From assembly GCA_900234795.1 (NCBI GenBank), contig LT962688.1:3420001-3452000 (forward strand): 32,000 nucleotides of DNA, read 5' to 3'. The notes beneath the pieces are model-generated. The model ran no database searches, was not told the origin of the DNA, and was given only the letters and a program-made list of their open reading frames with translations. This DNA comes from Methylorubrum extorquens. Its GTDB lineage: Bacteria; Pseudomonadota; Alphaproteobacteria; Rhizobiales; Beijerinckiaceae. The translations under genes and the position numbers were made by a program. Shown piece by piece: positions 9,334 to 31,499 of the stretch (position 1 is the first letter of the stretch; each line of letters starts with the position of its first letter).

Positions 9334-9360
9334 AATCAGCACCGGCCGGGACACGAGATC

Positions 9361-9393
9361 GGGGCAGTCGCCATCGGGCGGCTGCCCCTTTTT
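9361..9393 (+). terminator. rho-independent terminator
   Basis: GGGGCAGTCGCC-ATC-GGGCGGCTGCCCC (12-bp stem with one mismatch) followed by TTTTT, 28 nt after the stop at 9333. Confidence 0.7.
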
Positions 9394-9653
9394 CGTCAGT
9401 CCGCTTCGTCAGTCCCCTTGCAGCCATCCGGGGGTGAAAAGCGCCCGGCATCCTGACCCGCGGCTGCGCCCGAGCAGAGCCGACACCGACCGAGGACAAG
9501 GCCTCCCCTGGGGCGGGTCTGACAGCAGGCACTCGCAGTCACCATCGCATCGGCGGCCGACGCCGCATGACGCGGATGCGGCGAGCCTCTCGCGCGCTGC
9601 GGTCCCACGGTCTACATAGCCCGCCCCGCTCCAGCGACCTTCGGAGACCTCGC

Positions 9654-11120
9654 ATGCCCTCCTCGCCGCTCCTGCCGGCCTGCCTCGTATCCGTGCTTCT
9701 CGCCGCCGCACCCGCGAGCGCGCAGATGGCGAACACGCCCGGAAAGCCCGCCGCGGAGAAGGCCTCCCCGGACAAGGCGGTGCCCCTGTCGAAGGGCGAG
9801 ATCCAGCTCTCCTTCGCCCCCGTGGTGAAGCGGGCGGCGCCCTCCGTGGTCAACGTCTATGCCTCTCATGTCGAGAAGCGCTCCGCACGCTCCAACGCCA
9901 TGGAGGAGTTCATGCGCCGCTTCTTCGGCGAGGACCGTCCGGGCCGCGGCCCCAGCGGCCTGCCCGGCGAGCGGGCACAGCGCTCCCTGGGTTCGGGCGT
10001 GATCGTCGATGGCTCGGGCCTCGTCATCACCAACAACCACGTCATCGAGAACATGAACGAGGTGAAGGTGGCGCTCGCCGACAAGCGCGAGTTCGAGGCG
10101 CAGATCGTGCTGCGCGACCCCCGCACCGACCTCGCCGTGCTCAAGATCAAGGGCCCGGCCGACATCGCCTCGATGCCGATCGGCGATTCCGACCACTTGG
10201 AGGTCGGCGACTTCGTGATGGCGATCGGCAACCCGTTCGGCGTCGGGCAGACCGTGACGCAGGGCATCGTCTCGGCGCTCGCCCGCACCCAGGTCGGATC
10301 CTCGGACTACCAGTTCTTCATCCAGACCGATGCGGCGATCAATCCGGGCAATTCCGGCGGCGCGCTGGTGGACCTGAAGGGGCATCTCGTCGGCATCAAC
10401 ACCGCGATCTATTCGCAGTCAGGCGGCAGCCACGGCATCGGCTTCGCCATTCCCGCGAGCATGGTCCGCGCCGTGGTGGAGACCGCCAAGAGCGGCGGCA
10501 GCCTCGTGCGCCGGCCCTGGCTCGGGGCGCGGGTGCAGGGCGTAACCCCGGATATCGCCGAGAGCGTCGGGCTCGACCGGCCGACCGGTGTGCTGGTGGC
10601 GAGCATGCAGGCCAAGAGCCCGGCCGAGGAAGCCGGCCTCAAGCGCGGCGACGTGATCCTCACGGTCGATGGACAGACCGTCGAAGATCCGGAAGCCTTC
10701 GGCTACCGCTACGCCCTCAAGGGCATTTCCGGCACGGCCGATTTCGGCATCCTGCGCGGCACCAAGCGGCAGACGGTCCAGATCAAGCTCGGACCGGCGC
10801 CGGAGACGCGGCCCCGCGACAGCCTCAAGGTCCGCACCCGCACGCCGTTCGCGGGCGCGACCTTCGTCAACACCTCGCCCGCGGTGGGCGAGGAGCTTCA
10901 GGCGGACCTGCCGGACGAGGGCGTGGCGGTGACCACCGTCGAAGACGGCTCGCTCGCCGGCCGGGCGGGTTTCCGCAAGGGTGACGTGATCGTGGCGATC
11001 AACGGCATGCCCATCGCCTCGACCAAGGATCTGGAGCGGGTGACGCAGCGCAATCTCGGCCTGTGGGAGGTCGCGATCAACCGTGGCGGCGAGGTTCTGA
11101 CCTCGGTGTTCGGCGGGTAG
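9654..11120 (+). CDS. degP: DegP/HtrA (Do) family periplasmic serine endoprotease with two PDZ domains
   Basis: Signal peptide MPSSPLLPACLVSVLLAAAPASAQ. Catalytic blocks: GSGVIVDGSGLVITNNHV (His), RTDLAVLKI (Asp), AINPGNSGGALVD (Ser). Two PDZ-like segments: AEEAGLKRGDVILTVDG and AGRAGFRKGDVIVAING. ATG at 9654 with GGAG about 10 nt upstream; the track start at 9567 adds an Arg-rich extension. Confidence 0.9.
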   Translation: MPSSPLLPACLVSVLLAAAPASAQMANTPGKPAAEKASPDKAVPLSKGEIQLSFAPVVKRAAPSVVNVYASHVEKRSARSNAMEEFMRRFFGEDRPGRGPSGLPGERAQRSLGSGVIVDGSGLVITNNHVIENMNEVKVALADKREFEAQIVLRDPRTDLAVLKIKGPADIASMPIGDSDHLEVGDFVMAIGNPFGVGQTVTQGIVSALARTQVGSSDYQFFIQTDAAINPGNSGGALVDLKGHLVGINTAIYSQSGGSHGIGFAIPASMVRAVVETAKSGGSLVRRPWLGARVQGVTPDIAESVGLDRPTGVLVASMQAKSPAEEAGLKRGDVILTVDGQTVEDPEAFGYRYALKGISGTADFGILRGTKRQTVQIKLGPAPETRPRDSLKVRTRTPFAGATFVNTSPAVGEELQADLPDEGVAVTTVEDGSLAGRAGFRKGDVIVAINGMPIASTKDLERVTQRNLGLWEVAINRGGEVLTSVFGG

Positions 11121-12099: not shown

Positions 12100-15000
12100 C
12101 TATGACATCTGGGGGGATGGCGCGGAGCGCAGCCCGTCCCGGTGATCGACCGGCGCAGCCCCTGCCCTCCCCGTCTCGGGCGAGACGTTCGACAGGGCGG
12201 CCGCGTCGAGCCCGTAATAATCTTCCAGAATCCGCGGGTAGATGGTCGGCTGGAACGGCTCGCGGGCGGCCCAGAGCGCGTCGATGGGAAGCGCGAGCAG
12301 GGCCGCGTTCAGCCGCTGCGGGTCATCGGCCAGCGCCGGGTCGAGGCGGTGCCCGGCCCCGCTTTCGCGCAGCCGCTCGGCCTGGGCACCGAGATCGAAC
12401 ACCACCGGCGGCACCCCCGCGGCCAGCGCCAGCGAGAGCGTGTAGCAGTAGGTCTCCGGCCAGATCGAGGGGAGGAGGACCAGGTCCGGATCGAGCCGGG
12501 CGATCTCGGCGAGCGCCGCCGCGTCGCTGCCGTAGAGACCGGTCTCGCGCACGCCCGCCGCCTCCATCGCGCGCGGCTCGGCGGAGTGGCCGATGATCGT
12601 GAACACGATCGGCAATTGCCGCAGCCGGGCGTCGAGGGCGAGGTTGTGGACGACGTCGTAGCCCTTGTGCGCGCCGATCGATCCGATCACCGCAACCCGC
12701 AGCGGCCCCTCTCGGCGCTGGCGCGCCTTGAGTTCGACGCCGGCCAGCGTCTCTTCGTGCGGGCGCACCGCGATGCGGTCGAGGTGCAGCGTGCTGCCGA
12801 TGCGATCCGCGAGATCGGCCGAGGGGGCGAACACCGTCCGGGCGCGGTCGAGGAACCCGGCCCAGTCCCGCCGCCGCTCAGCGGGATCGGGCAGCACGAT
12901 CCCGTCGGCGTCGCGATCGAGGCGGATGCAGTCGCGGCAGACGGCGGGTTCTGCCAACCCGCAATAGACGCCGTCGGATCGCACGAGATTGTTGCGGTGG
13001 CAGACCGAGGCGTAGTCGTGAAGCGTGACGTCGTAGCCGGTGCCGGCCTCCTCGATCAGCCCCATCGCCACGCGGGTCGAGGGGGCATCGAGCCCCGCCA
13101 GCGAGTGCACATGCACCATTGCCGGGCCGAGCCAGCCGATCAGCTCGGCCAGGAGATCGGCGTCGCGGTCGAGGGAGAGCGGATCGAGGATCGAGACGGG
13201 GAAGTCGATCCCGCCCGATCCGGGCAGGCCGAGCCTGAACCCGCCGGGCTCGTCGGTGCGCAGATAGACGACGGCGAGACCGGCCTCGGCGAGCCGGAGG
13301 CTCAGCGCCTCGATATGGGTCTCGACCCCGCCGCCGAAATCGTGGGTCACGATCAGGGCGATGCCGCGCTCGGCGCTGGCCGTGGCGCGCTTGGCGAAGC
13401 GGTAGAGGTCGAGGCGGCGCCGGGCGAAGCGCGCGGGATCGACCTCGATGTGGTTGTGGACCCGTCGCTGGTAATCGGGGTGCTTGGTCAGGATCGCGCG
13501 GAAGATGTCCGCGCCCTTGGTCGCGAGCAGCGCGCCGAAGGAGACGCTGCCGGAGTGGAACACGAAAATGTCGTGGGCCAGCACGTTGGTGAAGCCCGCC
13601 TTGAGGGCGCGCATGCAGAAGTCGTTCTCTTCGCCGTAGCCGCGCCCGAAGGTCTCGGCGTCGAGGAGCCCCACCGCCGCGATCGCTTCCCGGCGCATCG
13701 CCATGCAGAAGCCGACGCCCGTCGGCACCGGCGAACTCGTGCGGGCGTTGCAGGCGCGGGTGAAGGCGTCGATCTCGGCGGGCATGATCTCGAGCCGGGC
13801 CTGATTGTCGACGTTGGGCCGCGGATAGCTGCAGATCGTGGCGTTGTTCGAAAACGGCGTGACCGTCGCGACGCGGGGGTCGGCGTCGAGGTGCCAGAGC
13901 AGGCGGTCGAGCCAATCGCCGTAGACGACGACGTCGGCATTGAGGAGCACGACATCCTTGCCTGCGGCGAGTTCGAGGCCGCGGTTGCAGGTCCGTACGA
14001 AGCCGAGATTCGCCTCGTTGACGAGGTGAGTGAAGAGGCCGCGGCCGCCGAGGTCGGCCAGAGCCGCGCTCAGGCGCGGATCGGGGCTGCAATCGTCGAT
14101 GACGAGGAGGGCGAAGGGCGTGGCCTGCTTCTCGCTCAGCACCGAGTGGATCGCCCGCAGGGTGTCGTCGTAGCCCTTGTAGACGGGCATGATCAGCACG
14201 ACCCGCGCCGCTGCGATGTCGGCGGCAGGCTGCGCCTGCTCCCACTCGGCCGGGGTCGGCGCGACCTGCGCGGGCCAGGTTCCGAGACCGAACGGTGTCG
14301 GCCGGAAGCCGCGCGCCCGGCCCACCGCGAGGTAGTGGAAGAACGGGTTCACCCCGGCCCCGATCTCCCGCCGGTAATGCTTGCGGTAGAAGCGCACCGA
14401 GAAGTCGGGGCTCGGGTCGCGATCCTCGCGGGCGCCGAAATCGAGGAAATGGCGGACCGGATCGATGCCGGAGCGGCGGATGTCGGGATTGGAGTCGAGG
14501 TAGTGCTCCCGGTCGAAGGCCGCCGCCACCGTCTCGTAGATCTGCGCGTCGGAGGCTTCGGCCGGGTCGGCGGGAAGCAGTGCTGCCTGCGGCTTGGTGC
14601 GCCGCGCGGGCGGGGCGGCGGCCTCCGAGGCCTGAAGCCGTCGCGTGGCGGCAAAATGATAGAGCGGGCTGACGCCGAGGCGCCGCATATGCGCGTGGCG
14701 CTGGAGGTAGGCGTCGCCCGAGAAGGCGTCGTTCGGGTCGAGCCCGCGCCGCCAGCCCTTGGTCAGGTAGTGGGAGAGCGGGTCCTCGCCTCCCTCGAGG
14801 CCGGCGAGGCGGGCATAATACGGCGCATCGAAATAGGGCTCGACCACGCCGGCCTGGAGCGACGGAAAATCCGGACCCGGCTGCGTCGCGACCCGCAGCC
14901 GCTCGGTCGGCGAGAGCGCCGCATAGTGGAGAAGCGGGTTGATCGCCGCCCGGTCGGCGAAGTGGCGGTCGGCGTAGAACAGCGTCGAGAACACCGCGGA

Positions 15001-15168
15001 CGGGTCGCGGCCCTCCAGCCAGCCATGGTCGAGGTAGTGCCGAAGCGGGTCGCCGCCGCCCGCAGCCACATCGGGATAGGCCGAGCGGTAGAAGGCGGGA
15101 TCGAAGAAGGGGGCGGCCATCGCGGCATCGCGGCGCCTGGGCCGAAACAGCTTCGGCAGCTTGATCAC
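12100..15168 (-). CDS. large multidomain glycosyltransferase: N-terminal ~60-aa repeats + GT2 domain + GT4-like domain
   Basis: GT2 block: VVLIMPVYKGYDDTLRAIHSVLSE...LLVIDDCSPD...NLGFVRTCNRG...DVVLLNADV...GFCMAMRRE. C-terminal GT-B/GT4-like part: ALIVTHDFGGGVETH...LHDYASVCHRNN...VIGSIGAHKG...LLPSIWPETYCYTLSLALAAGVPPVVFDLG. Probable GTG start at 15168 (VIKLPKLFRPRR) with GAGGAA 7 nt upstream; the track ORF starts at 15279. Confidence 0.85.
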   Translation of the reverse strand: MIKLPKLFRPRRRDAAMAAPFFDPAFYRSAYPDVAAGGGDPLRHYLDHGWLEGRDPSAVFSTLFYADRHFADRAAINPLLHYAALSPTERLRVATQPGPDFPSLQAGVVEPYFDAPYYARLAGLEGGEDPLSHYLTKGWRRGLDPNDAFSGDAYLQRHAHMRRLGVSPLYHFAATRRLQASEAAAPPARRTKPQAALLPADPAEASDAQIYETVAAAFDREHYLDSNPDIRRSGIDPVRHFLDFGAREDRDPSPDFSVRFYRKHYRREIGAGVNPFFHYLAVGRARGFRPTPFGLGTWPAQVAPTPAEWEQAQPAADIAAARVVLIMPVYKGYDDTLRAIHSVLSEKQATPFALLVIDDCSPDPRLSAALADLGGRGLFTHLVNEANLGFVRTCNRGLELAAGKDVVLLNADVVVYGDWLDRLLWHLDADPRVATVTPFSNNATICSYPRPNVDNQARLEIMPAEIDAFTRACNARTSSPVPTGVGFCMAMRREAIAAVGLLDAETFGRGYGEENDFCMRALKAGFTNVLAHDIFVFHSGSVSFGALLATKGADIFRAILTKHPDYQRRVHNHIEVDPARFARRRLDLYRFAKRATASAERGIALIVTHDFGGGVETHIEALSLRLAEAGLAVVYLRTDEPGGFRLGLPGSGGIDFPVSILDPLSLDRDADLLAELIGWLGPAMVHVHSLAGLDAPSTRVAMGLIEEAGTGYDVTLHDYASVCHRNNLVRSDGVYCGLAEPAVCRDCIRLDRDADGIVLPDPAERRRDWAGFLDRARTVFAPSADLADRIGSTLHLDRIAVRPHEETLAGVELKARQRREGPLRVAVIGSIGAHKGYDVVHNLALDARLRQLPIVFTIIGHSAEPRAMEAAGVRETGLYGSDAAALAEIARLDPDLVLLPSIWPETYCYTLSLALAAGVPPVVFDLGAQAERLRESGAGHRLDPALADDPQRLNAALLALPIDALWAAREPFQPTIYPRILEDYYGLDAAALSNVSPETGRAGAAPVDHRDGLRSAPSPQMS

Positions 15169-15400
15169 GGCCACATTCCTCGACAACGCCAATACCGGGC
15201 CCCGCGCCGGGATCGGCCCTTCGACTTGCATGGAAAGGAAGTGTGGCGCGGCCGGGGCGACGCCCTTCCCATACAGCATCGTCCCGAAGGGTGGCGGCCG
15301 GCTTCCACGAAAATGACGATGCGCGCGCCGATCGGGTGACGCAAGCGCGGTCGCCCACGCGAGAATGCGCCCGAACCTCTTCCCCCATAGCGGAGTTCGG

Positions 15401-17691: not shown

Positions 17692-18438
17692 CTACCGCTG
17701 CGGCCCGTAGGGCGGGCGCGGAATCGCGCGATGAGCCGCGCGCAAAGCCGCCGACCAGCGCTCGCGCAGATCGTGAAAATAGCTCTCGCCGGCCTCGATG
17801 CGATGGCTCACTTCGAGGTCGAGGGCGCCGCGGCGCTGCACGGCGATGTCGATCGGCAGGCCGACGCCGAGATTCGAGCGCATGGTCGAATCCATCGAGA
17901 CGAGGCCCACCTTCAGCGCGTCGTAGAGGTCGGTCTCGAAGGTCACGGCCCGGTCGAGGATCGGCTTGCCGTATTTGTGCTCGCCGATCTGGAGGAACGG
18001 CGCCTCGCGGCTGCACTCGATGAAATTGCCGGCCGAGTAGATCATGAACAGCCGCATCGGCTCGGTGCCGATCTGCCCGCCGAACAGGAACGAGACCTCC
18101 ATGCGCAGGTTGGCCGCCTCGAACCCGGCCGCCTCGATCTCGCGCACCCGGCGAATCGCCCGGCCGACGAGCTGGGCCGCCTTGAACATCGTCGCCGCGT
18201 CCTTGAGCTTGGCTGGCGTCTCGCCCTCGATGTCGTCCACGCCCTCGCGGAGCATGCTGAGCACCGACTGCGTCATGGACAGGTTGCCGGCCGAGGCGAG
18301 CATCATCACGCGCTCATTGGGCGTGTTGAACATGTGCAGCTTGCGGAAGGTCGAGATGTTGTCGAGCCCCGCATTGGTGCGGGTGTCGGCGATCATCACC
18401 AGCCCGTCCTCGACGAGCACTCCGACGCAGTAGGTCAT
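17692..18438 (-). CDS. proteasome-type protease, Anbu (ancestral beta-subunit) family
   Basis: N-terminus MTYCVGVLVEDGLVMIADTRTNAG has the Thr2 nucleophile context typical of Anbu. It is 248 aa and lies directly downstream of a transglutaminase gene on the same strand, as in the known ATP-grasp/alpha-E/TGase/Anbu gene set. Confidence 0.85.
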   Translation of the reverse strand: MTYCVGVLVEDGLVMIADTRTNAGLDNISTFRKLHMFNTPNERVMMLASAGNLSMTQSVLSMLREGVDDIEGETPAKLKDAATMFKAAQLVGRAIRRVREIEAAGFEAANLRMEVSFLFGGQIGTEPMRLFMIYSAGNFIECSREAPFLQIGEHKYGKPILDRAVTFETDLYDALKVGLVSMDSTMRSNLGVGLPIDIAVQRRGALDLEVSHRIEAGESYFHDLRERWSAALRAAHRAIPRPPYGPQR

Positions 18439-18567
18439 GGCGGTCGCCGCCTCAGGCAGGGGCCCGTGCGCCGGGCAGGTTCAGGCGGCCCGCATCGCAC
18501 GCTGCGAGCCAGCCCGGCAAGACAACTTTTTTAAAAGCCGGGTCCAAGGCCCGATGCCGGCTCAGCC

Positions 18568-19452
18568 TTAGCCCAAGCTCTGGCCAAGACTCTGGCTTTG
18601 ACTCTGGCTCTGCTGACCGTGGCCCTGAGACTGCGATTGGGAGTGCAACTGCTCGACGCGCAGGGCCACGTCGAGGGTTTCGGTGCCTCCGCCGACGCGG
18701 CTGCCGCGGATCGGCGCGGCGCCGAGATAGTCGAGGCCGACGGCGACGCGCACATGCGCCTCGGTCGCGGAGATGCCGTTGGCTGGGTCGAACCCGATCC
18801 AGCCGAGGCCCGGCACCAGTGACTCCGCCCAGGCATGCCCCGCCTTCTGGTCGTCGGCGCCGTCGTCGCGGCGGAAATAGCCAGAGACGTAGCGCGACGG
18901 GATCTCCAAGTGCCGGGCCGCGGCGAGGAAGATGTGGGTGAGATCCTGGCACACGCCCTTCCCGACCTCGAAGGCTTGGGCGGCACTGGTGCTGGCGCTG
19001 GTTGGGCCCGGTTCGAAAGTCACGGCGTCGTGGACGGCGGCGAGCAAGCGGTGCAGCATCGGCAGCGCATCACGCTCCCCCTTGCCCGCGACCTTCTCCG
19101 CGAAGGCTTTGAGTTCCGCGCTCGCCTCGGTCAGCTGGGTGTCGCGCAGGTAGAACAGGTCGGGCAGGCGCTCCACCGCGCCGCGCACGACGCCGCTGGT
19201 CTCGAAGGTCTCGATCTCGCCGGTCACCCGCACGGTGAGTGCGTCGGTGGGATCGTCGGCGGTGAACCAGTGGACGAGATTGCCGAACCCGTCCTCGCGG
19301 GCGGTGAGCCGTCCGTTGACCGAGGGCTCGATCCGCCACTCGCGCACGTGCTGACCGTCATGGTCACGCGGCGTCAGCCGCAGGATCTGTATCAGGCCCC
19401 GCGCGGGCTGCTGATAGGTATAGACCGTATCGTGGACGATCCGGATGCGCAT
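18568..19452 (-). CDS. transglutaminase family protein (Bact_transglu_N + transglutaminase core) with C-terminal Ser/Gln repeat tail
   Basis: MRIRIVHDTVYTYQQPARGLIQILRLTPR is a typical N-terminal domain. Catalytic Cys, His and Asp contexts: GKGVCQDLTHIFLAAARHLEIPSRYVSGY, GHAWAE, GWIGFDPANG. ATG at 19452; the 88-codon extension in the track has shadow-like composition. Confidence 0.85.
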   Translation of the reverse strand: MRIRIVHDTVYTYQQPARGLIQILRLTPRDHDGQHVREWRIEPSVNGRLTAREDGFGNLVHWFTADDPTDALTVRVTGEIETFETSGVVRGAVERLPDLFYLRDTQLTEASAELKAFAEKVAGKGERDALPMLHRLLAAVHDAVTFEPGPTSASTSAAQAFEVGKGVCQDLTHIFLAAARHLEIPSRYVSGYFRRDDGADDQKAGHAWAESLVPGLGWIGFDPANGISATEAHVRVAVGLDYLGAAPIRGSRVGGGTETLDVALRVEQLHSQSQSQGHGQQSQSQSQSLGQSLG

Positions 19453-19915
19453 GCCTTGATCCTGCCGGGACGACTTGCGGCAAGCTAGGGCAAGGACGGC
19501 GCTTTGGAAATCGGGCGGCTTGCTCAAACCTTTGGCAGAACGCGTTTTCTTGGCGGCCTCCGTCATGAAACCGGCCCGGAGCGGCGCCGCGAGACGCTTG
19601 TTCGGAGACGCTCCGGGCGGGGGACGCCGGGCGCGAACCTTCCCGCGAGCGGCGGAGGACAGGACTGAGCGGGATGTGCGGCCGGCAAAGACCCGGAACG
19701 ATATGACCGGGCGCACCGTTTCTGGCGCCCGAGCCGACAGCTCACGCCGCCGAGAGACGTTTCGACCCTACACCGCGATCACGCATCCCGAAATTTGCAC
19801 TCCGCTCTCGTCGCCCACTTACGACGAAGCGGAAAATTTTTGCCTTTTCCAATAACTCGCCGTGTTAATCTGCCGTTCATTGCAGCGTTTTGTTCGATTT
19901 CGATGCATATTTCTT

Positions 19916-19941
19916 GGAACGGTATTCCGGACCTCTCCGTT
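19916..19941 (+). promoter_or_regulatory. EcfG-type (general stress response ECF sigma) promoter-like motif GGAAC-N17-CGTT
   Basis: GGAAC at 19916-19920, a 17-nt spacer, then CGTT at 19938-19941, 38 nt upstream of the ATG at 19979. It matches the published alphaproteobacterial EcfG consensus GGAAC-N16-17-CGTT. Confidence 0.5.
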
Positions 19942-19978
19942 CTTGGTCCCGCAACAACCGAAACACTTGGAGGAATAC

Positions 19979-20383
19979 ATGCTCAAGCATATTCGCCTTG
20001 CCGCTCTCGCCAGCACCTTCGTCATCGGCAGCGCCGCACTCGCGTATGCCCAGTCGTCCTCGACGACCGGTACCGGCGGCTCGTCGGCGGGCGGCGGCAC
20101 CAGCTCCTCGACGGTTGGGACCGGTGGTTCTTCCGCTGGCTCGGGCAGCGGCTCGGGCTCGACGCTCGGCACCGGTGGCTCGTCGGCCGGCGGCGGCACC
20201 AGCTCCTCGACGGTCGGGACGGGCGGATCCTCGGCCAGCAAGAGCGGCAGCGGCTCGTCGACGGGCACGGGCGGCTCCACGTCCGGCACGTCCGATAGCG
20301 CGGGCAAGTCGGGCAGCGCTCCGGGTCATGACAAGAGCGGCCCCGGAAACTCCGAGAACGCTCCGGGCCACAACAAGCGCTAA
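19979..20383 (+). CDS. secreted Gly/Ser/Thr-rich low-complexity repeat protein (134 aa)
   Basis: GGAGGAA lies 5 nt before the ATG. Sec signal MLKHIRLAALASTFVIGSAALAYA|Q. The mature part is almost only G/S/T, with an internal 33-aa duplication (GSSAGGGTSSSTVGTGG twice). Confidence 0.7.
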   Translation: MLKHIRLAALASTFVIGSAALAYAQSSSTTGTGGSSAGGGTSSSTVGTGGSSAGSGSGSGSTLGTGGSSAGGGTSSSTVGTGGSSASKSGSGSSTGTGGSTSGTSDSAGKSGSAPGHDKSGPGNSENAPGHNKR

Positions 20384-20403
20384 GCCTCGGCCGGCGTAAT
20401 TGC

Positions 20404-20429
20404 GGGCGCGGTTCGGACGAACCGCGCCC
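20404..20429 (+). terminator. hairpin terminator after the Gly/Ser-rich gene
   Basis: GGGCGCGGTTC-GGAC-GAACCGCGCCC, an 11-bp perfect stem 21 nt after the stop, followed by GTCTC (weak U-tract). Confidence 0.55.
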
Positions 20430-20430
20430 G

Positions 20431-20520
20431 TCTCAGAGCACCTCGCAGAACGTCCGGGCGCCGACCATCGCCGCTCCGGCTGCGGGGTGCATGGGGGTTT
20501 TGTGAGAAACACTCATCATC
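20431..20520 (+). promoter_or_regulatory. conserved hairpin leader element, copy B (stem 20442-20456 / 20492-20506 plus conserved 3' box)
   Basis: Homologous to 15401-15493. The stem keeps 14 of 15 pairs, 4 of them as G-U wobbles that only pair on the plus-strand RNA. The 3' box GTTTTGTGAGAAACACTCATCATC ends 16 nt before the ATG at 20537. Confidence 0.45.
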
Positions 20521-20536
20521 TGAGGAGAGACGCACC

Positions 20537-20914
20537 ATGGCACGTGTGATCCGACCGCTTCTCGGCGCCACACTCGTTCTGGCCGGCATCGCCGCGAGTC
20601 AGGCCCAGACCAGCACCGTCAAAACGGGCCCGAACGGTGTCGCCGGCAGCACGACCGTCACGACCGGGCCCAACGGCAAGCCGTGCCGGCTCGTCCAATC
20701 CGACGATGCCAACACCTCCGGCACGCTGTCGAGTTCGGTCACGGCCGGCCCCGACGGGGTGAAGAGTTCCACCACCGGCGGCCCGTCGGTGACGACGCGA
20801 TCGGGCAGCGGCACGACCAGCAGTTCCGCCTCCAGTTCGAGCACCGGCAGCGGCAGCACGATGACGACAACCGGTGACGGCAACTGCGTGGTCACCGTAC
20901 CGAGCAAGAAGTGA
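20537..20914 (+). CDS. secreted Ser/Thr/Gly-rich low-complexity protein (125 aa)
   Basis: GAGGAGAGA precedes the ATG. Signal peptide MARVIRPLLGATLVLAGIAASQAQ. Repeated TGPNG/GPDG units and an S/T-rich tail, with two Cys. Confidence 0.65.
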   Translation: MARVIRPLLGATLVLAGIAASQAQTSTVKTGPNGVAGSTTVTTGPNGKPCRLVQSDDANTSGTLSSSVTAGPDGVKSSTTGGPSVTTRSGSGTTSSSASSSSTGSGSTMTTTGDGNCVVTVPSKK

Positions 20915-20921
20915 GGGTCCG

Positions 20922-21371
20922 ATGAGCATTGCCAAGACGAACACACGTGCGGCGACGGCGCTTGCCGTCCTCGGCCTCGTCCTCGCCCCGGCTTTCGCGC
21001 AGGCGCAGGGCAGTGCCACGGCGGGCAGCGCCGGCTCGGCGGCATCCGGCGGCACCTCCGCCTCGACCGTCGGCACCGGCGGCACCTCGACGGGCGCGAA
21101 CGGCGGCACGGGCTCCTCGCTGGCGACCGGCGGCGCTGCGGCCGGCGGCAAGACCATGGACCGCTCGCATGTGAACGAGACCGGAAATGGCGGCCTCAAC
21201 GGCCAGTCCAAGTCCATGGCCCATGATGGCGGCACGTTCTCGAAATCGCAGACCAAGACCAAGGTCCGCGACGGTGAGAGCGTCGAGTCGCGCACCAAGA
21301 CCATGTCGCACGAGCCCGGCTCGAAACCCGTGAAATCGACGACCACCACGGGCGCGACCACCGGCCAGTGA
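20922..21371 (+). CDS. secreted Gly/Ser/Thr/Ala-rich protein (149 aa), partly paralogous to the 19979 gene product
   Basis: ATG at 20922, 8 nt after the previous stop, with GAGGG upstream. Signal peptide MSIAKTNTRAATALAVLGLVLAPAFAQA. It shares the GGTSASTVGTGGTS motif with the 19979 product. The C-terminal half is lysine/threonine-rich. Confidence 0.65.
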   Translation: MSIAKTNTRAATALAVLGLVLAPAFAQAQGSATAGSAGSAASGGTSASTVGTGGTSTGANGGTGSSLATGGAAAGGKTMDRSHVNETGNGGLNGQSKSMAHDGGTFSKSQTKTKVRDGESVESRTKTMSHEPGSKPVKSTTTTGATTGQ

Positions 21372-21411
21372 GGCCGAACCGATTGTCTCTCACCTGACCG
21401 CAGGAGGCCCG

Positions 21412-21666
21412 ATGCTGCGCAAACCGACCCTGACCCTACTTTCCGTGCTGGCGTTTGCCGGCGGCATCCTCGGCACCACCTCGGCCGCCATGGCCGATCC
21501 GCCCTGGGCGCGCGGCGGAGGACGCGGCTTCCATCACGGCGGTCCGCCGCCCTGGGCGCCCGCCCATGGATGGCGGCGCAAGCATGATTTCGGCGGCTAT
21601 GGAGGCCGGTCGTATCGCAGCTCTCGGTATGACGACGGACGGCGATACGACCGGTACGGTTACTGA
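21412..21666 (+). CDS. small secreted Arg/Gly/Tyr/Pro-rich basic protein (84 aa)
   Basis: GCAGGAGG precedes the ATG. Signal peptide MLRKPTLTLLSVLAFAGGILGTTSAAMA. Mature part: DPPWARGGGRGFHHGGPPPWAPAHGWRRKHDFGGYGGRSYRSSRYDDGRRYDRYGY. Confidence 0.6.
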   Translation: MLRKPTLTLLSVLAFAGGILGTTSAAMADPPWARGGGRGFHHGGPPPWAPAHGWRRKHDFGGYGGRSYRSSRYDDGRRYDRYGY

Positions 21667-21719
21667 CCCGCACGGCGCTTCGCTTCAAGCGGCGCTGAGG
21701 CTTCACCCCACCGGCTCTG

Positions 21720-21750
21720 ACGGCGTCCGCTTGATCGAAGCGGACGCCGT
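21720..21750. terminator. bidirectional hairpin terminator between convergent genes
   Basis: ACGGCGTCCGC-TTGATCGAA-GCGGACGCCGT, an 11-bp perfect stem followed by TTCAGTT. It lies between the stop at 21666 (+) and the stop at 21766 (-). Confidence 0.6.
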
Positions 21751-21765
21751 TTCAGTTGGTCGCTC

Positions 21766-22710
21766 TCACACCAGATACTGGTCGCTGATGGCCGCGCCGA
21801 GACTGTTGTTCTCGACGATGAAGCCCTGGATGAACTCGTGGAGGCCGGAGGCGAAGACACGCTCGATGTCGGCGCTGCGAAGCTTCGCCCGCAGATTGCT
21901 CGCCAGACGCTGACTCTCGCCGCGGCGGCCGTAGGCGTCGGCGATCAGATCGAGATGCTCCACCAGCATCCGGTAGCAGCTCGCGAGCGAGCGCGGCATC
22001 TCGGGGTTGAGGATCAGCAGGTCGGCCACGAGCACCGGCTTGATGCTCTCACGGTAGACCCAGTGATAGGCGTTGAAGGCCGAGACCTCGCGCAGGATCG
22101 TCGTCCACTGGAAGTAGTCGAGCGAGCCGCCGACCCGCTCCGAAGCCGGCAGCAGAATCTGGTACTTCACGTCGAGGATGCGCGCCGTGTTGTCCGCCCG
22201 CTCGATCGCCGTACCGGCGCGGGTGAACCAGTAGGCGTCGTTGCGCAGCATCGTCCGGTAGGCCGAGCCGTCGAAGGTCAGCGAGACGCGCTTCACCCAG
22301 TCGAGGAATTGCGTGAACTCGTCGCGCGAGAGGTCGCGGCCCTCGTAGGACCGCAGTTCGAGATAGGCGCCGTTGATCGTGTCCCACATCTCCGTGGTGA
22401 GCGCCGTGCGGATCGAGCGGGCGTTCTCCCGCGCCGTGGCGATGCAGGAGCGGATTGAGGACGGGTTGTGGGGCGAGAAAGCGAGGAAGTTGCAGACCGT
22501 GTGCTCGTTGACCGAATCGTAGAGCGTCTTGAATAGCTCGGGATCGCCCGCCGAGGACAGGGCCGAGGCCCACTCGTTCGAGGTGCGCCCGCCATAGCTC
22601 GACGGAAGGGCGGCCAGCCGCAGGGCCGCGTCGAGGATGCGGGCCAGAAAATCCGCGCGCTCGGCGTAGCGCGAGAGCCAGTAGAGGTTGTCGGCAGTCC
22701 GGGACAGCAT
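21766..22710 (-). CDS. alpha-E domain-containing protein (DUF403 family)
   Basis: The N-terminus MLSRTADNLYWLSRYAERADFLARILD is the hallmark start of alpha-E proteins. It is 314 aa and lies directly downstream of the circularly permuted ATP-grasp gene. Confidence 0.9.
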   Translation of the reverse strand: MLSRTADNLYWLSRYAERADFLARILDAALRLAALPSSYGGRTSNEWASALSSAGDPELFKTLYDSVNEHTVCNFLAFSPHNPSSIRSCIATARENARSIRTALTTEMWDTINGAYLELRSYEGRDLSRDEFTQFLDWVKRVSLTFDGSAYRTMLRNDAYWFTRAGTAIERADNTARILDVKYQILLPASERVGGSLDYFQWTTILREVSAFNAYHWVYRESIKPVLVADLLILNPEMPRSLASCYRMLVEHLDLIADAYGRRGESQRLASNLRAKLRSADIERVFASGLHEFIQGFIVENNSLGAAISDQYLV

Positions 22711-22817
22711 GGCGTCAGCTCGCGGGCGCGTTGGCGACCAGGGCGGCAGATGCGCGGTGTTTCATCACCGACGCTGCCCGGCCTGCCTGAAGATTGCGAA
22801 AGAATCGGGCGAAGCGC

Positions 22818-24257
22818 TCAAGCATCGAGCACCCAGGTATCCTTGGTACCGCCACCCTGGCTCGAATTGACCACCAGCGAACCCTCTTTCAGCGCGACCC
22901 GCGTCAGGCCGCCGGGCACGATGCGGATCTCGTCGGCGCCGGCCAGCACGAAGGGGCGCAGATCGACGTGGCGGGGGGCAACGCCCGAGGCGACGAAGGT
23001 TGGGCAGGTGGAGAGCGAGAGCGTCGGCTGGGCGATGAAGTTGTCCGGCGCGTGGCGCAGCTTCTTCGCGAACTCGTCGATCTCGCGCCGCGTCGCGTGC
23101 GGGCCCACCAGCATGCCGTAGCCGCCCGAGCCGTTGACCTCCTTCACCACGAGGTCCTTGAGGTTGTCCATCACGTAGGAAAAGGCGTCCTTTTCCCGGC
23201 AGCGATGCGTCGGCACGTTGTGCAGGATCGGGTCTTCGCCGGTGAAGAACTTCACGATTTCCGGCATGTAGCTGTAGACGGCCTTGTCGTCCGAGATGCC
23301 GGTGCCGACCGCGTTCGACAGGGTGACGTTGCCCCGCTCGTAGGCGTTCATCAGTCCCGGCACGCCGAGCACCGAATCCGGCCGGAACACCAGCGGATCG
23401 AGGAAATCGTCGTCGAGGCGGCGGTAGATCACGTCGACGCGGCGCGGACCTTCGGTCGTGCGCATGTAGACGACCTCGTCCTTGGTGAAGAGGTCGCCCG
23501 CCTCCACCAGCTCGACGCCGAGTTTATCGGCCAGGAACGAGTGTTCGTAGAAGGCCGAGTTGTAGCGGCCGGGGGTCAGCAGCACCACGGTCGGGTCGCG
23601 GGTGGCGGAAGCCGGGGCGAGGCTGCGCAGGGTCGCGAGCAGGGCGTCGGGATAATTCTCGACCGGGGCGACGCGGTGGCGCGAGAACAGCTCGGGGAAG
23701 AGCCGCATCATCACCTCGCGGTTCTCCAGCATGTAGGAGACGCCGGACGGGGTGCGAGCGTTGTCCTCCAGCACGAAGAAGTCCTTCTCGCCGGTCCGCA
23801 CGATGTCGATGCCGGCGATGTGGACGTAGAGGTCGTGCGGCACGTCGAAGGCGCGCATCTCCATGCGGTAATGCGGGTTGCGGTAGACGAGGTCGGGCGG
23901 GATGATCCCCGCCTTGATGCACTCCTCGGCGCCGTAGATGTCGTTGATGAAGGCGTTCAGCGCGGTGACCCGCTGCTTGAGGCCGCGCTCCAGGAAATCC
24001 CATTCGGGCTTGGTCAGCACCCGCGGGATGATGTCGAAGGGGATCAGCCGCTCGGTCGATTCGTTGGCGCCGTAGACCGCGAAGGTGATGCCGATGCGCC
24101 GGAACAGCATTTCGGCCTGACTGCGGCGGGTGTTGAAATGCTCCGGCGGCGTCTTGTCGAGCCAAGACTTGAGGATGTCATAGGCCTCGCGCACGGCCGC
24201 CGGTTCGAGCTGCCCCGCCCCGCCCCCATTCATCTCGTCGAACGCCGTGTGCGCCAT
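22818..24257 (-). CDS. circularly permuted type 2 ATP-grasp protein (DUF404/DUF407 family)
   Basis: The 479-aa product from ATG 24257 (GGGGGAA upstream) begins MAHTAFDEMNGG...AVREAYDILKSWL and continues FAVYG...ERLIPFDIIPRVL...WDFLERGLKQRVTALNAFINDIYG...YVHIAGIDIVR...FVLEDNARTPSGVSYMLENR. This is typical of the family and it is paired with an alpha-E gene. The upstream 88 codons in the track look like a shadow. Confidence 0.9.
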   Translation of the reverse strand: MAHTAFDEMNGGGAGQLEPAAVREAYDILKSWLDKTPPEHFNTRRSQAEMLFRRIGITFAVYGANESTERLIPFDIIPRVLTKPEWDFLERGLKQRVTALNAFINDIYGAEECIKAGIIPPDLVYRNPHYRMEMRAFDVPHDLYVHIAGIDIVRTGEKDFFVLEDNARTPSGVSYMLENREVMMRLFPELFSRHRVAPVENYPDALLATLRSLAPASATRDPTVVLLTPGRYNSAFYEHSFLADKLGVELVEAGDLFTKDEVVYMRTTEGPRRVDVIYRRLDDDFLDPLVFRPDSVLGVPGLMNAYERGNVTLSNAVGTGISDDKAVYSYMPEIVKFFTGEDPILHNVPTHRCREKDAFSYVMDNLKDLVVKEVNGSGGYGMLVGPHATRREIDEFAKKLRHAPDNFIAQPTLSLSTCPTFVASGVAPRHVDLRPFVLAGADEIRIVPGGLTRVALKEGSLVVNSSQGGGTKDTWVLDA

Positions 24258-27903: not shown

Positions 27904-27990
27904 GCGGACGTGGCGAAACCGGTAGACGCACGAGACTTAAAATCTTGCGGCCGCAAGGCTGTGCGGGTTCGAGTCCCGCCGTCCGCACCA
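27904..27990 (+). tRNA. tRNA-Leu (anticodon TAA), type II with long variable arm, CCA encoded
   Basis: Hand-folded. Acceptor stem GCGGACG/CGTCCGC. D arm GCG-AAACCGGTAGA-CGC. Anticodon stem CGAGA/TCTTG with loop CTTAAAA. Variable arm CGGCCGCAAGGCTGT. T arm GCGGG-TTCGAGT-CCCGC. Discriminator A followed by CCA. Confidence 0.85.
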
Positions 27991-28929: not shown

Positions 28930-29246
28930 CGGAGGCCAGCCAGCAATTCGGCGTGGCGGGTCAGTTGCTCGTCCATGCCGTCCCAATCGCCGAGACCGTT
29001 ATCGTCGGTTAGGCCCTCGGCGTCTGGCTCGCCCTCAAGATCGCAGTCAGGCGTCAGCGCGTCGAGCAAGGCGATGCCCGCCTCGATCCGGTCGGCGATG
29101 GCGCGGCGCAGATCACGGATGCGGGGCTGGTCCGGATCTGCTGCCAGCATGACCCGCAGGGCATGCGTAACGGGCCCGATCTGTGGCTTGGGCGAGCGAG
29201 ACCGTTCACCGGCTCGTGCCGGTGCTGTAGGGTGGTGGATAGCCAT
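28926..29246 (-). CDS. acidic hypothetical protein (106 aa), first gene of a four-ORF minus-strand operon
   Basis: ATG at 29246, divergent from the RHH gene. The product is rich in Asp/Glu/Leu (DCDLEGEPDAEGLTDDNGLGDWDGMDEQL). No recognised domain. Confidence 0.5.
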   Translation of the reverse strand: MAIHHPTAPARAGERSRSPKPQIGPVTHALRVMLAADPDQPRIRDLRRAIADRIEAGIALLDALTPDCDLEGEPDAEGLTDDNGLGDWDGMDEQLTRHAELLAGLR

Positions 29247-29312
29247 GGGACGTCCTCAACTGACGTTGCTGGTCAGGGCTGAGACGGAAGTTGCACCTTC
29301 CCCTCAGTCCGC

Positions 29313-29364
29313 TTTTCGGTTAAACCAAAAAGCATGCTGATGTCAATTCCGGTTGAACCGAAAA
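29313..29364. promoter_or_regulatory. two 19-bp imperfect palindromes TTTTCGGTT-N-AACCGAAAA (putative operators of the adjacent RHH repressor)
   Basis: Site 1 is TTTTCGGTTAAACCAAAAA (29313-29331). Site 2 is TTCCGGTTGAACCGAAAA (29347-29364). The outer half-sites TTTTCGGTT and AACCGAAAA are exact reverse complements. The centres are 33 bp apart and straddle the RHH start codon. Confidence 0.5.
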
Positions 29365-29525
29365 GGCGAGGCCGTCCGGCCACAGGGCGCGACCCGCTCG
29401 TTGGGTTTCGTGCGCCTGCTGACCTTCTGGCGCAGCTGGATGCCTATGCGGCCAGGGAAGGGCTAAAGCGCTCAGAGGCTATTCGCCGTCTCGTCGAGGA
29501 GGCGTTGAGGGCGAGGCAGTCCTAA
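29334..29525 (+). CDS. ribbon-helix-helix (CopG/Arc-like) DNA-binding protein
   Basis: 63 aa. The product ...RGRPATGRDPLVGFRAPADLLAQLDAYAAREGLKRSEAIRRLVEEAL shows the beta-strand/helix/helix pattern of RHH regulators and antitoxins. Confidence 0.75.
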   Translation: MLMSIPVEPKRRGRPATGRDPLVGFRAPADLLAQLDAYAAREGLKRSEAIRRLVEEALRARQS

Positions 29526-29581
29526 GCAGCTCTATTGAGGAGGCGCCATGAAAGATGTTGATAACGCCGGGAGAATGAGGC

Positions 29582-29872
29582 TTAAGCCGCCTCCCGAGCA
29601 GCCTCTCTTGTAAGTCTCATTTTGATCATGTCATTTATTTGCTTTGTTGAATTGACGATTTTTAAGTTCGTTTTAATTTCTTCAAGCGCCATAATCTGAA
29701 GAAGCGGCACAAATGCAGCATTAACGAATGCTGAAGTCGCAATATCTATGCCCGCAAACGAGATCGTGACGTTTCTGCCACCCTTCAGATGGCCTGAAAG
29801 CATGTCATAAACAACTTGGCCTTGCTCCCCCGTGTATGCGCCAGGGAGAATGTCGATCAGATTGATCACCAT
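29582..29872 (-). CDS. STAS-like small protein (DUF4325-like), 96 aa
   Basis: AT-rich ORF. The product MVINLIDILPGAYTGEQGQVVYDMLSGHLKGGRNVTISFAGIDIATSAFVNAAFVPLLQ resembles DUF4325/anti-sigma-antagonist-like proteins. Its start overlaps the upstream GHKL gene by 7 nt. Confidence 0.7.
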   Translation of the reverse strand: MVINLIDILPGAYTGEQGQVVYDMLSGHLKGGRNVTISFAGIDIATSAFVNAAFVPLLQIMALEEIKTNLKIVNSTKQINDMIKMRLTREAAREAA

Positions 29873-30756
29873 GCTAGATCCTCCGGCTCGTCATCTACGA
29901 AGGTTATTGTATCAGTTCTTAGAACTATGTCGATTGTAGTTCCTGGGCAGAAACCTGGAACCTGACTGGGTATGATCTGGTATCCGCCCTCCCAGGGAGA
30001 GAAACGGACCATACCATTGAAAGATGATATAGTCACTTCTCCGCCATTCATACATACGACGGTTTGAAGCAGGAAATCCAAGCCAATCCCTCTATTCCGC
30101 GGGGTACTGCGCGTAGAGAAATCGACTTCAACGGCTTTCGCTATTGCTTGGTTGTCGGTCAGTCCTCTTACGACCTTTTCTACATTAGATGGAATTCCTA
30201 CTCCAAAGTCAGCAATAGCAATCTTCACGCGCTTTAAGTTTGGAAAATGTTGAGCGAAAATGCTGCCGTTTTCTCTCGATGAGTGATCTTGTATGTTGAT
30301 AAATATCTCGGACAGGCACGCTTGGAAGGGGTGCAGTGATGCTTTGCTTATCCCCAGAGTTGACGCAAGCCATGGTGTCAACTTCATCTGTATGAAGCTG
30401 TGGCTTTCAGAATGCTCAACCCGTCGAAGGTGCTGAGTCGTTCCCCGAGGAGAGCTATATGGATAGACCTTCTTGCCCAGATGCTGTTCAAAGAACAAGG
30501 AGTCATCAAGAAAGGCAATGCAGGCGGCTGGTCTATTGTAGTTGACAAAGCCGCACTTGATGCTTTTGTGATGCAGCCAATACACAAAATTACTGAGAAA
30601 GGTGATGCCTGCCGGCTCAATAAAACCTAAAAAATGAAAATCAAGTATAACCTGGGCGGGAAGGGTTTCCCCGCATCTATTTATGAAATCTTGCACTACG
30701 CCGCGTAGGGTATCGGTGTTCAGGCTGTAGGGAAGAGCAATTGTTATTTCTGACAT
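29866..30756 (-). CDS. STAS-like N-terminal domain + GHKL (HATPase_c, RsbW/SpoIIAB-type) ATP-binding protein, 296 aa
   Basis: AT-rich ORF. N box LSEIFINIQDHS, G1 box IADFGVGIP, G2 box RNRGIGLDFL, then GGEVTISS...GTTIDIVL. The N-terminal VILDFHFLGFIEPAGITFLSNFVYWL is STAS-like. Confidence 0.75.
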   Translation of the reverse strand: MSEITIALPYSLNTDTLRGVVQDFINRCGETLPAQVILDFHFLGFIEPAGITFLSNFVYWLHHKSIKCGFVNYNRPAACIAFLDDSLFFEQHLGKKVYPYSSPRGTTQHLRRVEHSESHSFIQMKLTPWLASTLGISKASLHPFQACLSEIFINIQDHSSRENGSIFAQHFPNLKRVKIAIADFGVGIPSNVEKVVRGLTDNQAIAKAVEVDFSTRSTPRNRGIGLDFLLQTVVCMNGGEVTISSFNGMVRFSPWEGGYQIIPSQVPGFCPGTTIDIVLRTDTITFVDDEPEDLAW

Positions 30757-30896
30757 TTGGCGCCCCGTGTCGACGGGACGCTTATAGTGCTATGGGTCTA
30801 CATGCTAGTGTTTCGTGGCAACATGGCTCTAAACCCTTTGCACGCACGGTCCGATCCGGTGATGCGAGCTGCCGTGTGGTGACTTCTTTGGAGTGT

Positions 30897-31499
30897 TCAG
30901 CCCCGGTAGTCGGCCGTCCGCCGGAACCATATCAGCGGCGCGTCCCGGTGCATTCCCGGCAACGCTACGAGGTCAACGAGCTGCCCGTGCTGAACGTCGT
31001 CGGCGTCGCGTACCAGCTTCTCGGGGGGCGCAAGCCAAGGCGCATCAGCCGGCCGGCCAGGATTGGCAGCCTTGATCTGCTCGTTGCAGGCCATCACCCG
31101 CTGTAGGATCTCAGTGATCGCAGCGGCGTGCTTCGGGTACTCCTCACGAATGAGAGCCGCGCAAGCGTCCCGCTCCTTCACTGCCGCCTCATAAGCTAGG
31201 CGCCCTCGCTCCGCCGCCTCTGCCCGCTCCACTTCAGCGAGCTTCATGTTGAGCCGCGCGATGGATGAGGTCGTCCGCTCTTCCTCGAAGCCTAGCCGGT
31301 GATGCGCCTCACGGGCTCGATCGGCCTCTTCCAGGCTGGTGAGGGGATCGACCGCCGTCGCTTTGGCGGCGATCAGGTCGGCGCGGATGCGCTCCAGGTC
31401 GAGCTTGAGGTCGGAAATCAGCGCCGTGATCTGGCCGGATGTGCGGGACTCCGTGAGCGCCGCACGAACCTGATCCGTGAGGGGAAGAACCTGCTGCAT
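30897..31499 (-). CDS. coiled-coil hypothetical protein (200 aa)
   Basis: ATG at 31499 overlaps the upstream TGA (TGATG). The central region is heptad-like (LISDLKLDLERIRADLIAAKA...IARLNMKLAEVERAEAAERGRLAYEAAVKERD). No family recognised. Confidence 0.55.
   Translation of the reverse strand: MQQVLPLTDQVRAALTESRTSGQITALISDLKLDLERIRADLIAAKATAVDPLTSLEEADRAREAHHRLGFEEERTTSSIARLNMKLAEVERAEAAERGRLAYEAAVKERDACAALIREEYPKHAAAITEILQRVMACNEQIKAANPGRPADAPWLAPPEKLVRDADDVQHGQLVDLVALPGMHRDAPLIWFRRTADYRG

Follow-up and report, generated by a model that had tools for sequence, protein, structure and literature searches.

Anbu, the ancestral beta-subunit homologous to the proteasome, is encoded in a four-gene operon of conserved order whose physiological role is unknown (PMC5666114, PMC6376114); as cited in these two papers, the operon is credited to Iyer et al. 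2009 and Valas & Bourne 2008. Its substrate is likewise unknown, no peptidase activity has been detected for Anbu, and ATP hydrolysis has been seen for the ATP-grasp protein (PMC6376114); our literature search on the function of the operon found nothing newer. Here we analyze a stretch of 32,000 nucleotides (nt) of Methylorubrum extorquens DNA (GenBank assembly GCA_900234795.1, contig LT962688.1, positions 3,420,001 to 3,452,000 of the forward strand), called the window below and numbered from its first letter, in which the Anbu gene set lies on the minus strand in two halves, separated by four small plus-strand genes that we name ins1 to ins4. The reading we prefer, at a probability of roughly 0.8, is that the Anbu operon has been cut by a relocated, self-contained gene cluster, as a lineage-specific accident and not as a functional module.

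The four core genes of the locus, with protein lengths in amino acids (aa), are the following.

22818-24257, minus strand: cpATP-grasp (circularly permuted ATP-grasp), first gene of the Anbu operon, 479 aa; Pfam CP_ATPgrasp_2 at E 1e-163 over the full length and CP_ATPgrasp_1 at E 1e-149
21766-22710, minus strand: Alpha-E, 314 aa; Pfam Alpha-E at E 4e-96 across the full length
18568-19452, minus strand: transglutaminase-like protein (cysteine peptidase fold), 294 aa; Bact_transglu_N at E 9e-23 and Transglut_core at E 2e-20
17692-18438, minus strand: Anbu, 248 aa; Pfam Proteasome at E 2.5e-5, and matches to Anbu structures in the PDB

These Pfam and PDB matches confirm the four minus-strand genes that an earlier interpretation made from the letters alone, the sequence-only reading, had placed at the same positions, and its statement that they form a known gene set with an unsolved role agrees with PMC5666114 and PMC6376114. 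Among solved Anbu structures, the protein encoded here matches 5NYJ, 5NYF, 5LOX and 5NYW (E 1e-60 to 1e-68); its match to 5LOY, a designed Anbu, reaches E 6e-78. As read from its sequence, it starts with MTYCVG, placing a Thr right behind the initiator Met, and D18 and K33 (counting the Met) are the equivalents of Asp17 and Lys32, which are among the catalytic residues named in PMC6376114. The transglutaminase-like protein matches PDB 3ISR at E 2e-9, with the Cys of GVCQD, the His of GHAW and the Asp of FDP all aligned. The window thus shares with the described operon the four families, their order and strand, Thr1, Asp17 and Lys32 of Anbu, the Cys-His-Asp residues of the transglutaminase and the tight ligase pair, the cpATP-grasp and Alpha-E genes being 107 nt apart on the same strand. 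In contrast, its Alpha-E/transglutaminase junction holds 2.2 kb of opposite-strand genes, a difference found in the extorquens group and in sp. R2-1 only. The distance from Alpha-E to the transglutaminase gene is 2.3 kb and takes in four genes on the opposite strand and a strong hairpin. Given this interruption, the four core genes are predicted not to share a single transcript; as a gene set they belong to the Anbu operon, but the single-operon architecture has been lost, and the split of the two pairs by an opposite-strand insertion of four plus-strand genes, as the sequence-only reading had described it, is borne out.

At its C terminus, the transglutaminase-like protein carries a Ser-Gln/Gly low-complexity tail (QSQSQGHGQQSQSQSQSLGQSLG, encoded at 18568-18650 on the minus strand) that comes from a 12-nt tandem repeat and varies in length between strains of the extorquens group, giving proteins of 286, 290, 294 or 296 aa; similar Q/S/A-rich tails occur in other Methylobacterium species. 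Public gene calls for Anbu (assemblies L081-L090) are 248 or 267 aa long.

The extent of the insertion was read from DNA homology with Methylorubrum populi (locus L007), whose operon is unsplit and which matches only window positions 19301-19560 and 21756-21900. Since this homology breaks at 19560 and resumes at 21756, the insertion spans about 2.2 kb, beginning at most about 10 nt from the Alpha-E stop codon, and an ancestral spacer of about 108 nt (19453-19560) has stayed on the transglutaminase side. The inserted block is colinear with the locus of sp. R2-1 (L101) at 80.6% identity. It contains the following features.

19561-21755, no strand assigned: inserted block of about 2.2 kb, missing from unsplit relatives
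19979-20383, plus strand: ins1, 134-aa Ser/Gly-rich protein, predicted to be exported, with 99-nt internal repeats; Shine-Dalgarno sequence GGAGG, G+C content at third codon positions (GC3) 0.84, AXA-type signal-peptidase site
20537-20914, plus strand: ins2, 125-aa Thr/Ser/Gly-rich protein with two Cys, predicted to be exported; Shine-Dalgarno sequence, GC3 0.84
20922-21371, plus strand: ins3, 149-aa protein, predicted to be exported; both halves are conserved, the N-terminal one Gly/Thr/Ser, the C-terminal one beta-rich; 262 homologues
21412-21666, plus strand: ins4, 84-aa Gly/Arg/Tyr/Pro-rich protein, predicted to be exported; Shine-Dalgarno sequence AGGAGG, homologues near the cluster

By inspection, each of the four genes has a Shine-Dalgarno sequence and encodes a hydrophobic N terminus ending at an AXA-type signal-peptidase site, and their GC3 values range from 0.74 to 0.88. 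The first three proteins are rich in Gly, Ser, Thr and Ala, and ins4 in Gly, Arg, Tyr and Pro; Gln occurs 1, 3, 5 and 0 times and Lys 5, 5, 9 and 2 times in ins1 to ins4, counts that contradict their earlier description as Gln/Lys-rich. Public gene calls in assemblies L081-L090 are inconsistent here, with antisense open reading frames (ORFs) of 149-162 aa and 100-102 aa replacing plus-strand ins1 and ins2 or added to them. Homologues in other species preserve the plus-strand reading frames, and we favor these frames over the antisense calls because of this conservation and of the signal peptides.

None of the four proteins matched a family in Pfam, NCBIfam or PADLOC. A search with ins3 gave 262 homologues at E<=1e-3, with named sources including Methylobacterium, Bradyrhizobium and Chelatococcus, and an alignment of 22 of them (A3) has 41 invariant columns, which cover most of the Gly/Thr/Ser-rich segment and the C-terminal AHDGGTFSKSQTKTKV...TKTMSHEPGSKPVKS; judged by this alignment, ins3 is a real, constrained protein family. 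Its AlphaFold2 model is confident only in a C-terminal beta-meander (10-residue blocks from residue 81, mean predicted local distance difference test score 69-89), and a Foldseek comparison of the model with the PDB gave a best match at E 0.15, so that no fold was assigned. Tandem repeats of 48 and 99 nt within ins1 (20057-20290, plus strand) encode GGTSSSTVGTGGSSAG units, and strains differ there by one SG dipeptide (134 versus 136 aa). As part of this repeat recurs in ins3 (21018-21156) at 72% identity, ins1 and ins3 are partial paralogues. Rfam returned no RNA family within the insert, either in the whole window at the gathering threshold or in 19400-21800 at E<=1. A 92-nt tRNA-Pro(GGG) called by ARAGORN inside ins2 (20615-20706, minus strand) is probably a false positive, there being no Rfam tRNA even at E<=1.

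To place this arrangement among relatives, one genome per species was scanned with the Alpha-E protein, and 80 loci among the matches listed, from Methylobacterium, Methylorubrum, Microvirga, Enterovirga, Salinarimonas, Alsobacter, Bosea and other Hyphomicrobiales, were surveyed, with intergenic gaps taken from tblastn matches of the four core proteins. The survey holds no locus of the window's own arrangement; extorquens-group loci were found by exact-protein look-up. The results show that the gap between Alpha-E and the transglutaminase gene is at most 250 nt in 76 of 79 listed species loci (median 48), the larger gaps all being, among the loci listed, in Methylorubrum; that the gap between cpATP-grasp and Alpha-E is at most 250 nt in 79/80; and that the transglutaminase and Anbu genes are more than 1 kb apart in only 3. 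No DNA homologue of 19561-21755 was found at the Anbu locus in any of the 80. The window itself belongs to the Methylorubrum extorquens group, whose nearest species-level relatives are Methylorubrum and Methylobacterium. Proteins identical to ins2 and ins3 are encoded at the same locus in CP021054.1, AP025942.1, CP073633.1 and many other assemblies, the exact ins2 protein at the same locus in the 6 places shown (23 contigs read). Among the loci examined, the split by the ins cluster is confined to the extorquens group and sp. R2-1. The content of the Alpha-E/transglutaminase junction in the closest relatives is as follows.

M. populi: 111 nt, no gene
M. suomiense: 227 nt, no gene
sp. B4 and sp. 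NPDC097213: 925-nt gap with an opposite-strand PAP2 phosphatase gene
M. rhodinum: 2.0 kb with a same-strand major facilitator superfamily (MFS) transporter gene
sp. R2-1: an orthologous MFS gene (83% DNA identity) and the four ins genes, the latter colinear with the window
Extorquens group: the ins genes alone

The next junction, between the transglutaminase gene and Anbu, is also occupied in three species: by an IS5-type transposase in M. aquaticum (L046, 11919-12703), by a 313-aa ORF without a Pfam match in M. nigriterrae (L028, 12993-13934), and by a Trp/Gly-repeat ORF of 314 aa, again without a Pfam match, in M. rhodinum (L004, 13952-14896). A rough neighbor-joining tree places the extorquens group beside sp. 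B4 and sp. NPDC097213, then sp. R2-1, then M. populi, then M. suomiense and M. rhodinum, and the pattern of cargo on this tree cannot be had without gaining, losing or exchanging genes several times.

In bacterial genome evolution it is generally seen that operons are split where an intergenic site is permissive, by insertions specific to a lineage. The present locus resembles them in having PAP2, MFS or ins cargo at one junction and insertion sequences or ORFs at the next junction elsewhere; it shows nothing unusual in this comparison, and its insert carries no mobility genes. The sequence-only reading had proposed that the same split, with unrelated cargo, in other lineages would mark a mere insertion hotspot, and this is what the synteny comparison found within Methylorubrum and Methylobacterium. 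In four loci (L060, L064, L066 and L068; Alsobacter, L064 being a metagenome-assembled genome, or MAG, labeled Beijerinckiaceae), the tblastn matches of cpATP-grasp and Alpha-E have 5 nt in common (e.g., 8596-10005 and 10001-10939), a sign that the two genes of the ligase pair overlap and are possibly coupled in translation.

The inserted genes have a history of their own, as contigs encoding divergent members show: ins1-, ins2- and ins3-like genes co-occur in the same order at other loci.

M. komagatae (L097): cluster adjoining genes for an AI-2E transporter and a GAF-PAS histidine kinase
M. adhaesivum (L099): cluster beside a sigma-factor gene (Sigma70_r2, PhyR_sigma2, Sigma70_r4_2) and CsbD, PRC-barrel and DUF1236 genes
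Methylobacterium (L103): cluster with a PG_binding_1 gene on one side and a DUF1491 gene on the other
Chelatococcus (L100): cluster at an unrelated locus, with homologues of ins1 to ins3 only

In the same cluster position, the ins1 homologues are 74-82% identical to ins1 in L097, L099, L101 and L103 and 60% in Chelatococcus, and those of ins2 are 66-81% identical in the Methylobacterium loci and 40% in Chelatococcus. Homologues of ins4 adjoin the cluster upstream in L097, downstream on the opposite strand in L099, and also in L101; an ins4-like gene was not detected at L103 or in Chelatococcus L100. Judging from these homologues, the ins genes are not novel cargo but a conserved cluster of Methylobacteriaceae. 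In all three named Methylobacterium species in which it could be checked (e.g., M. adhaesivum, L021), the Anbu operon is uninterrupted. Since the cluster lies at unrelated loci and the operon is intact there, the two are independent of each other and are neighbors only in the extorquens/R2-1 lineage.

This distribution bears directly on whether the ins proteins are functionally linked to the Anbu system, as cross-linking substrates of the transglutaminase or as targets tagged by the ATP-grasp protein and degraded by Anbu. The genes are physically adjacent, their arrangement is stable across the extorquens-group loci examined and common to sp. R2-1, and the operon has no assigned substrate (PMC6376114). 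However, the adjacency exists in one small clade only, against 76/79 listed species with an uninterrupted junction, elsewhere the cluster lies in at least four different genomic settings, and in sister species the junction holds PAP2 or MFS genes or no cargo at all. The ins proteins also have few Gln and Lys, and carry N termini resembling signal peptides, which the transglutaminase-like protein and Anbu lack, so that the two sets are predicted to reside in different compartments; moreover, the ins genes have the opposite orientation and a separate, putative stress-type promoter. We consider a functional link extremely unlikely. Both the link and the role as transglutaminase substrates, which the sequence-only reading had raised, thereby lose their footing; its other suggestion, that the inserted genes may be unrelated passengers, is supported by the cluster's presence elsewhere and by the other cargo at the junction.

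The same homologues help to judge whether the insert was acquired horizontally, as a mobile element or genomic islet. Close relatives lack this discrete block of 2.2 kb, the G+C content falls to 0.64 at its left edge in a window that is mostly 66-72% G+C, and an IS5-type element did enter between the transglutaminase gene and Anbu in M. aquaticum. Yet the block contains no integrase or transposase genes, terminal inverted repeats or target duplication, the ins genes do not stand out from the host in G+C content or GC3, and orthologues 66-82% identical lie in other Methylobacterium chromosomes, with homologues in Chelatococcus and in an assembly labeled Bradyrhizobium. A mobile origin is therefore very improbable, and the presence of ins orthologues in related chromosomes argues for a vertical history of the family combined with intragenomic relocation or homologous exchange between close species.

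How the cluster is expressed was considered against the regulons of EcfG, the sigma factor of the alphaproteobacterial general stress response (PhyR-NepR-EcfG). The EcfG consensus of M. extorquens AM1 is GAAC-N16,17-C/GGTT (PMC4814048); in Sphingomonas melonis it is GGAAC-N17-20-GTT, enriched within 100 bp of the start of coding sequences, with targets that include a "predicted small secreted protein" and many hypothetical proteins (PMC6599016). Upstream of ins1 we found two motifs of this type.

19916-19941, plus strand: proximal sigma-EcfG-type motif GGAAC-N17-CGTT, 37 nt upstream of the ins1 ATG
19695-19720, plus strand: distal motif of the same type, which precedes the proximal one by about 220 nt and is conserved in L101 (5688-5712) and L103 (5793-5817)

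The pattern GGAAC-N17-CGTT matches twice in the window, against 0.44 matches expected. In each of the five Methylobacterium-type loci (the window, L097, L099, L101 and L103) it precedes the start of ins1 by 36-38 nt, and in their alignment (A2) both boxes are invariant while the spacer and the flanks vary. The ins cluster thus resembles EcfG regulon members in carrying the motif within 40 nt of the first start codon, in encoding small secreted proteins of a kind also found among the S. melonis targets, and, in M. adhaesivum, in adjoining CsbD, PRC-barrel, DUF1236 and sigma-factor genes; it differs in that its dependence on EcfG/PhyR is a prediction, and in that its proteins match no family of Pfam, NCBIfam or PADLOC. 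From this motif conservation, we predict that the cluster takes part in the general stress response.

Further elements lie in the same upstream region. Behind the distal motif come a hairpin (about 19801-19833) and a U-run (to about 19845; 19695-19850, plus strand), a terminator-like combination present in the window and in L101, not clearly in L103, and without an Rfam match; together they could yield a short (about 110 nt) stress-induced transcript, or a leader, upstream of ins1. A 17-nt element, GTTAATCTGCCGTTCAT (19864-19880, plus strand), precedes the proximal GGAAC box by about 35 nt; it hardly varies among the five Methylobacterium-type loci (A2, A4) and may be a regulator binding site.

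Two stable hairpins were found at the other end of the insert and inside it.

21720-21750, no strand assigned: strong hairpin between the convergent ins4 and Alpha-E genes, a 13-nt perfect inverted repeat forming a 14-bp stem on the plus strand, followed by UUUCAGUU
20403-20430, plus strand: hairpin after ins1 with a 13-bp perfect stem

The first lies between the ins4 and Alpha-E stop codons, within the inserted DNA, and the 99-nt segment 21667-21765 folds at -52.4 kcal/mol (z -4.18); its position and stability make it a likely terminator of the ins transcript and a likely barrier between Alpha-E and the transglutaminase gene. The second (62-nt fold 20384-20445, -32.7 kcal/mol, z -2.87) is a possible attenuator or terminator inside the cluster. 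Of the terminator hairpins that the sequence-only reading had seen flanking the insert, one strong flanking hairpin at 21720-21750 stands; the one at 20403-20430 is internal, and the left flank is a putative promoter region and no terminator. A scan for E. coli-type terminators returned terminator-like sites only at chance level.

With the operon cut in this way, the transglutaminase and Anbu genes would need a promoter of their own, and the candidate is the spacer left on their side.

19453-19560, minus strand: ancestral Alpha-E/transglutaminase spacer, candidate internal promoter and 5' untranslated region, conserved in Methylorubrum

About 95 nt upstream of the transglutaminase ATG (19453-19545) are conserved in 7/7 Methylorubrum loci whatever the cargo, unsplit M. 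populi included (alignment A1), with invariant blocks on the minus strand, CTGCCAAAGGTTTGAGCA (19538-19521), CCGATTTCCAA (19515-19505) and GCCCTAGCTTG (19492-19482), ahead of the Shine-Dalgarno sequence. In other Methylobacterium species, the corresponding stretch measures only about 30-50 nt. This conservation suggests an internal promoter within 19453-19560 that predates the insertion, and such a promoter would explain why the junction tolerates cargo. The earlier proposal that this half has its own promoter in 19453-19800 is plausible on these grounds, the spacer being conserved and the hairpin at 21720-21750 standing between that half and Alpha-E.

If, on the contrary, the split were operon decay, the transglutaminase/Anbu half would be promoterless, silent and on its way to becoming a pseudogene. 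The transglutaminase is indeed the least conserved of the four proteins, with 87% identity to the nearest species against 95-99% for the others. It is, however, also less conserved in species where the operon is unsplit, Anbu is 95% identical to its sister-species counterpart, both genes are full-length with their catalytic residues kept in 17 extorquens-group loci and in sp. R2-1, and the upstream spacer and Shine-Dalgarno sequence are retained. Across these 17 loci all eight genes are full-length, and cpATP-grasp, Alpha-E and ins3 are identical in all extorquens-group loci where they are complete (cpATP-grasp in 16, ins3 in 17). Given that all eight genes are intact, neither operon half is decaying, and we hold decay to be highly unlikely.

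Alternatively, the insertion may have rewired this half. The proximal EcfG motif is palindromic (GAACGG...CCGTTC), so that both strands of 19917-19942 fit the relaxed AM1 consensus GAAC-N16,17-SGTT, and the minus-strand match faces the transglutaminase gene from 465 nt away; minus-strand transcription of transglutaminase and Anbu would then come under general-stress control. The minus-strand -35 element reads AGAAC and not GGAAC, the relaxed pattern is expected about 2.3 times per window by chance, and the conserved spacer, closer to the transglutaminase gene, is a simpler promoter candidate. Because the minus-strand match is missing from the orthologous sp. R2-1 locus as well, we judge divergent stress control very improbable.

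Taken together, these results lead us to retain the reading of an Anbu operon cut by a relocated cluster. According to this model, 2.2 kb (19561-21755) would have entered between Alpha-E and the transglutaminase gene in the extorquens lineage, in the form of an older, self-contained Methylobacteriaceae cluster of four small, putatively Sec-exported low-complexity proteins, equipped with one or two promoters of the sigma-EcfG type and with terminator hairpins of its own. The ins cluster would be transcribed away from the transglutaminase gene and converge on Alpha-E, which would make cpATP-grasp and Alpha-E a separate transcription unit ending at or near the hairpin at 21720-21750. Transglutaminase and Anbu would form a second unit, most likely driven from the 19453-19560 spacer, which would have pre-existed in unsplit Methylorubrum and probably made the site tolerant of insertion.

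Several observations weigh against this model. The ends of the insert (19561 and 21755) bear neither a target-site duplication nor inverted repeats, and mobility genes are missing, as already seen. A search for the strict EcfG motif gave no match ahead of the ins1-like gene of Chelatococcus, nor at the more distant loci L106 (an assembly labeled Bradyrhizobium sp. MAG) and L108, and EcfG control may for this reason be limited to Methylobacteriaceae. An E. coli-type sigma-70 scan, which is not tuned to alphaproteobacterial promoters, found no promoter in the region. Finally, the neighbor-joining tree, built from three genes without support values, is too weak to order the gains and losses at the junction.

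Two other regions of the window deserve mention. A 1059-aa multidomain glycosyltransferase (GT2 and GT4/GT1 domains) is encoded at 12100-15279 on the minus strand, and its N-terminal region contains repeated motifs resembling DP..HY...GW.EGR.P. On the other side, a tRNA-Leu(TAA) gene at 27904-27990 is followed by a drop in G+C content to 0.47-0.56 (29000-31000). The low-G+C region encodes, on the minus strand, a 296-aa protein with weak similarity to HATPase_c and an overlapping 96-aa DUF4325 (STAS-like) protein, and PADLOC gave there only a weak match to a DrmA fragment; the region has the look of a small genomic island linked to the tRNA gene.

The gene set described here is a fresh instance of a known system, with the ins genes as unrelated, probably stress-regulated passengers. 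The rearrangement, being lineage-specific, has little bearing on Anbu biology, and the neighboring genes are not candidate substrates. A wider joint reading, which we find unlikely, would see in the ins cluster a widely conserved, uncharacterized, general-stress-induced family of exported or periplasmic proteins of Hyphomicrobiales, perhaps accompanied by a short EcfG-driven transcript from the distal promoter, and would have the insertion perhaps rewire the Anbu operon so that the hydrolase half is expressed apart from the ligase half, possibly under stress control by way of the palindromic promoter; if true, M. extorquens would be a natural separation-of-function strain for the role of the Anbu system. 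Under the preferred reading, ins1 to ins4 are a testable candidate addition to the Methylobacterium general stress response regulon. The natural splits, between Alpha-E and the transglutaminase gene here and between transglutaminase and Anbu in M. rhodinum, M. nigriterrae and M. aquaticum, contrast with cpATP-grasp and Alpha-E, which are essentially never apart (79/80 listed loci), suggesting that the operon consists of a tightly coupled ligase pair and separable hydrolase genes, that co-transcription of all four genes is not required, and that the Anbu gene set tolerates transcriptional uncoupling everywhere but between cpATP-grasp and Alpha-E.

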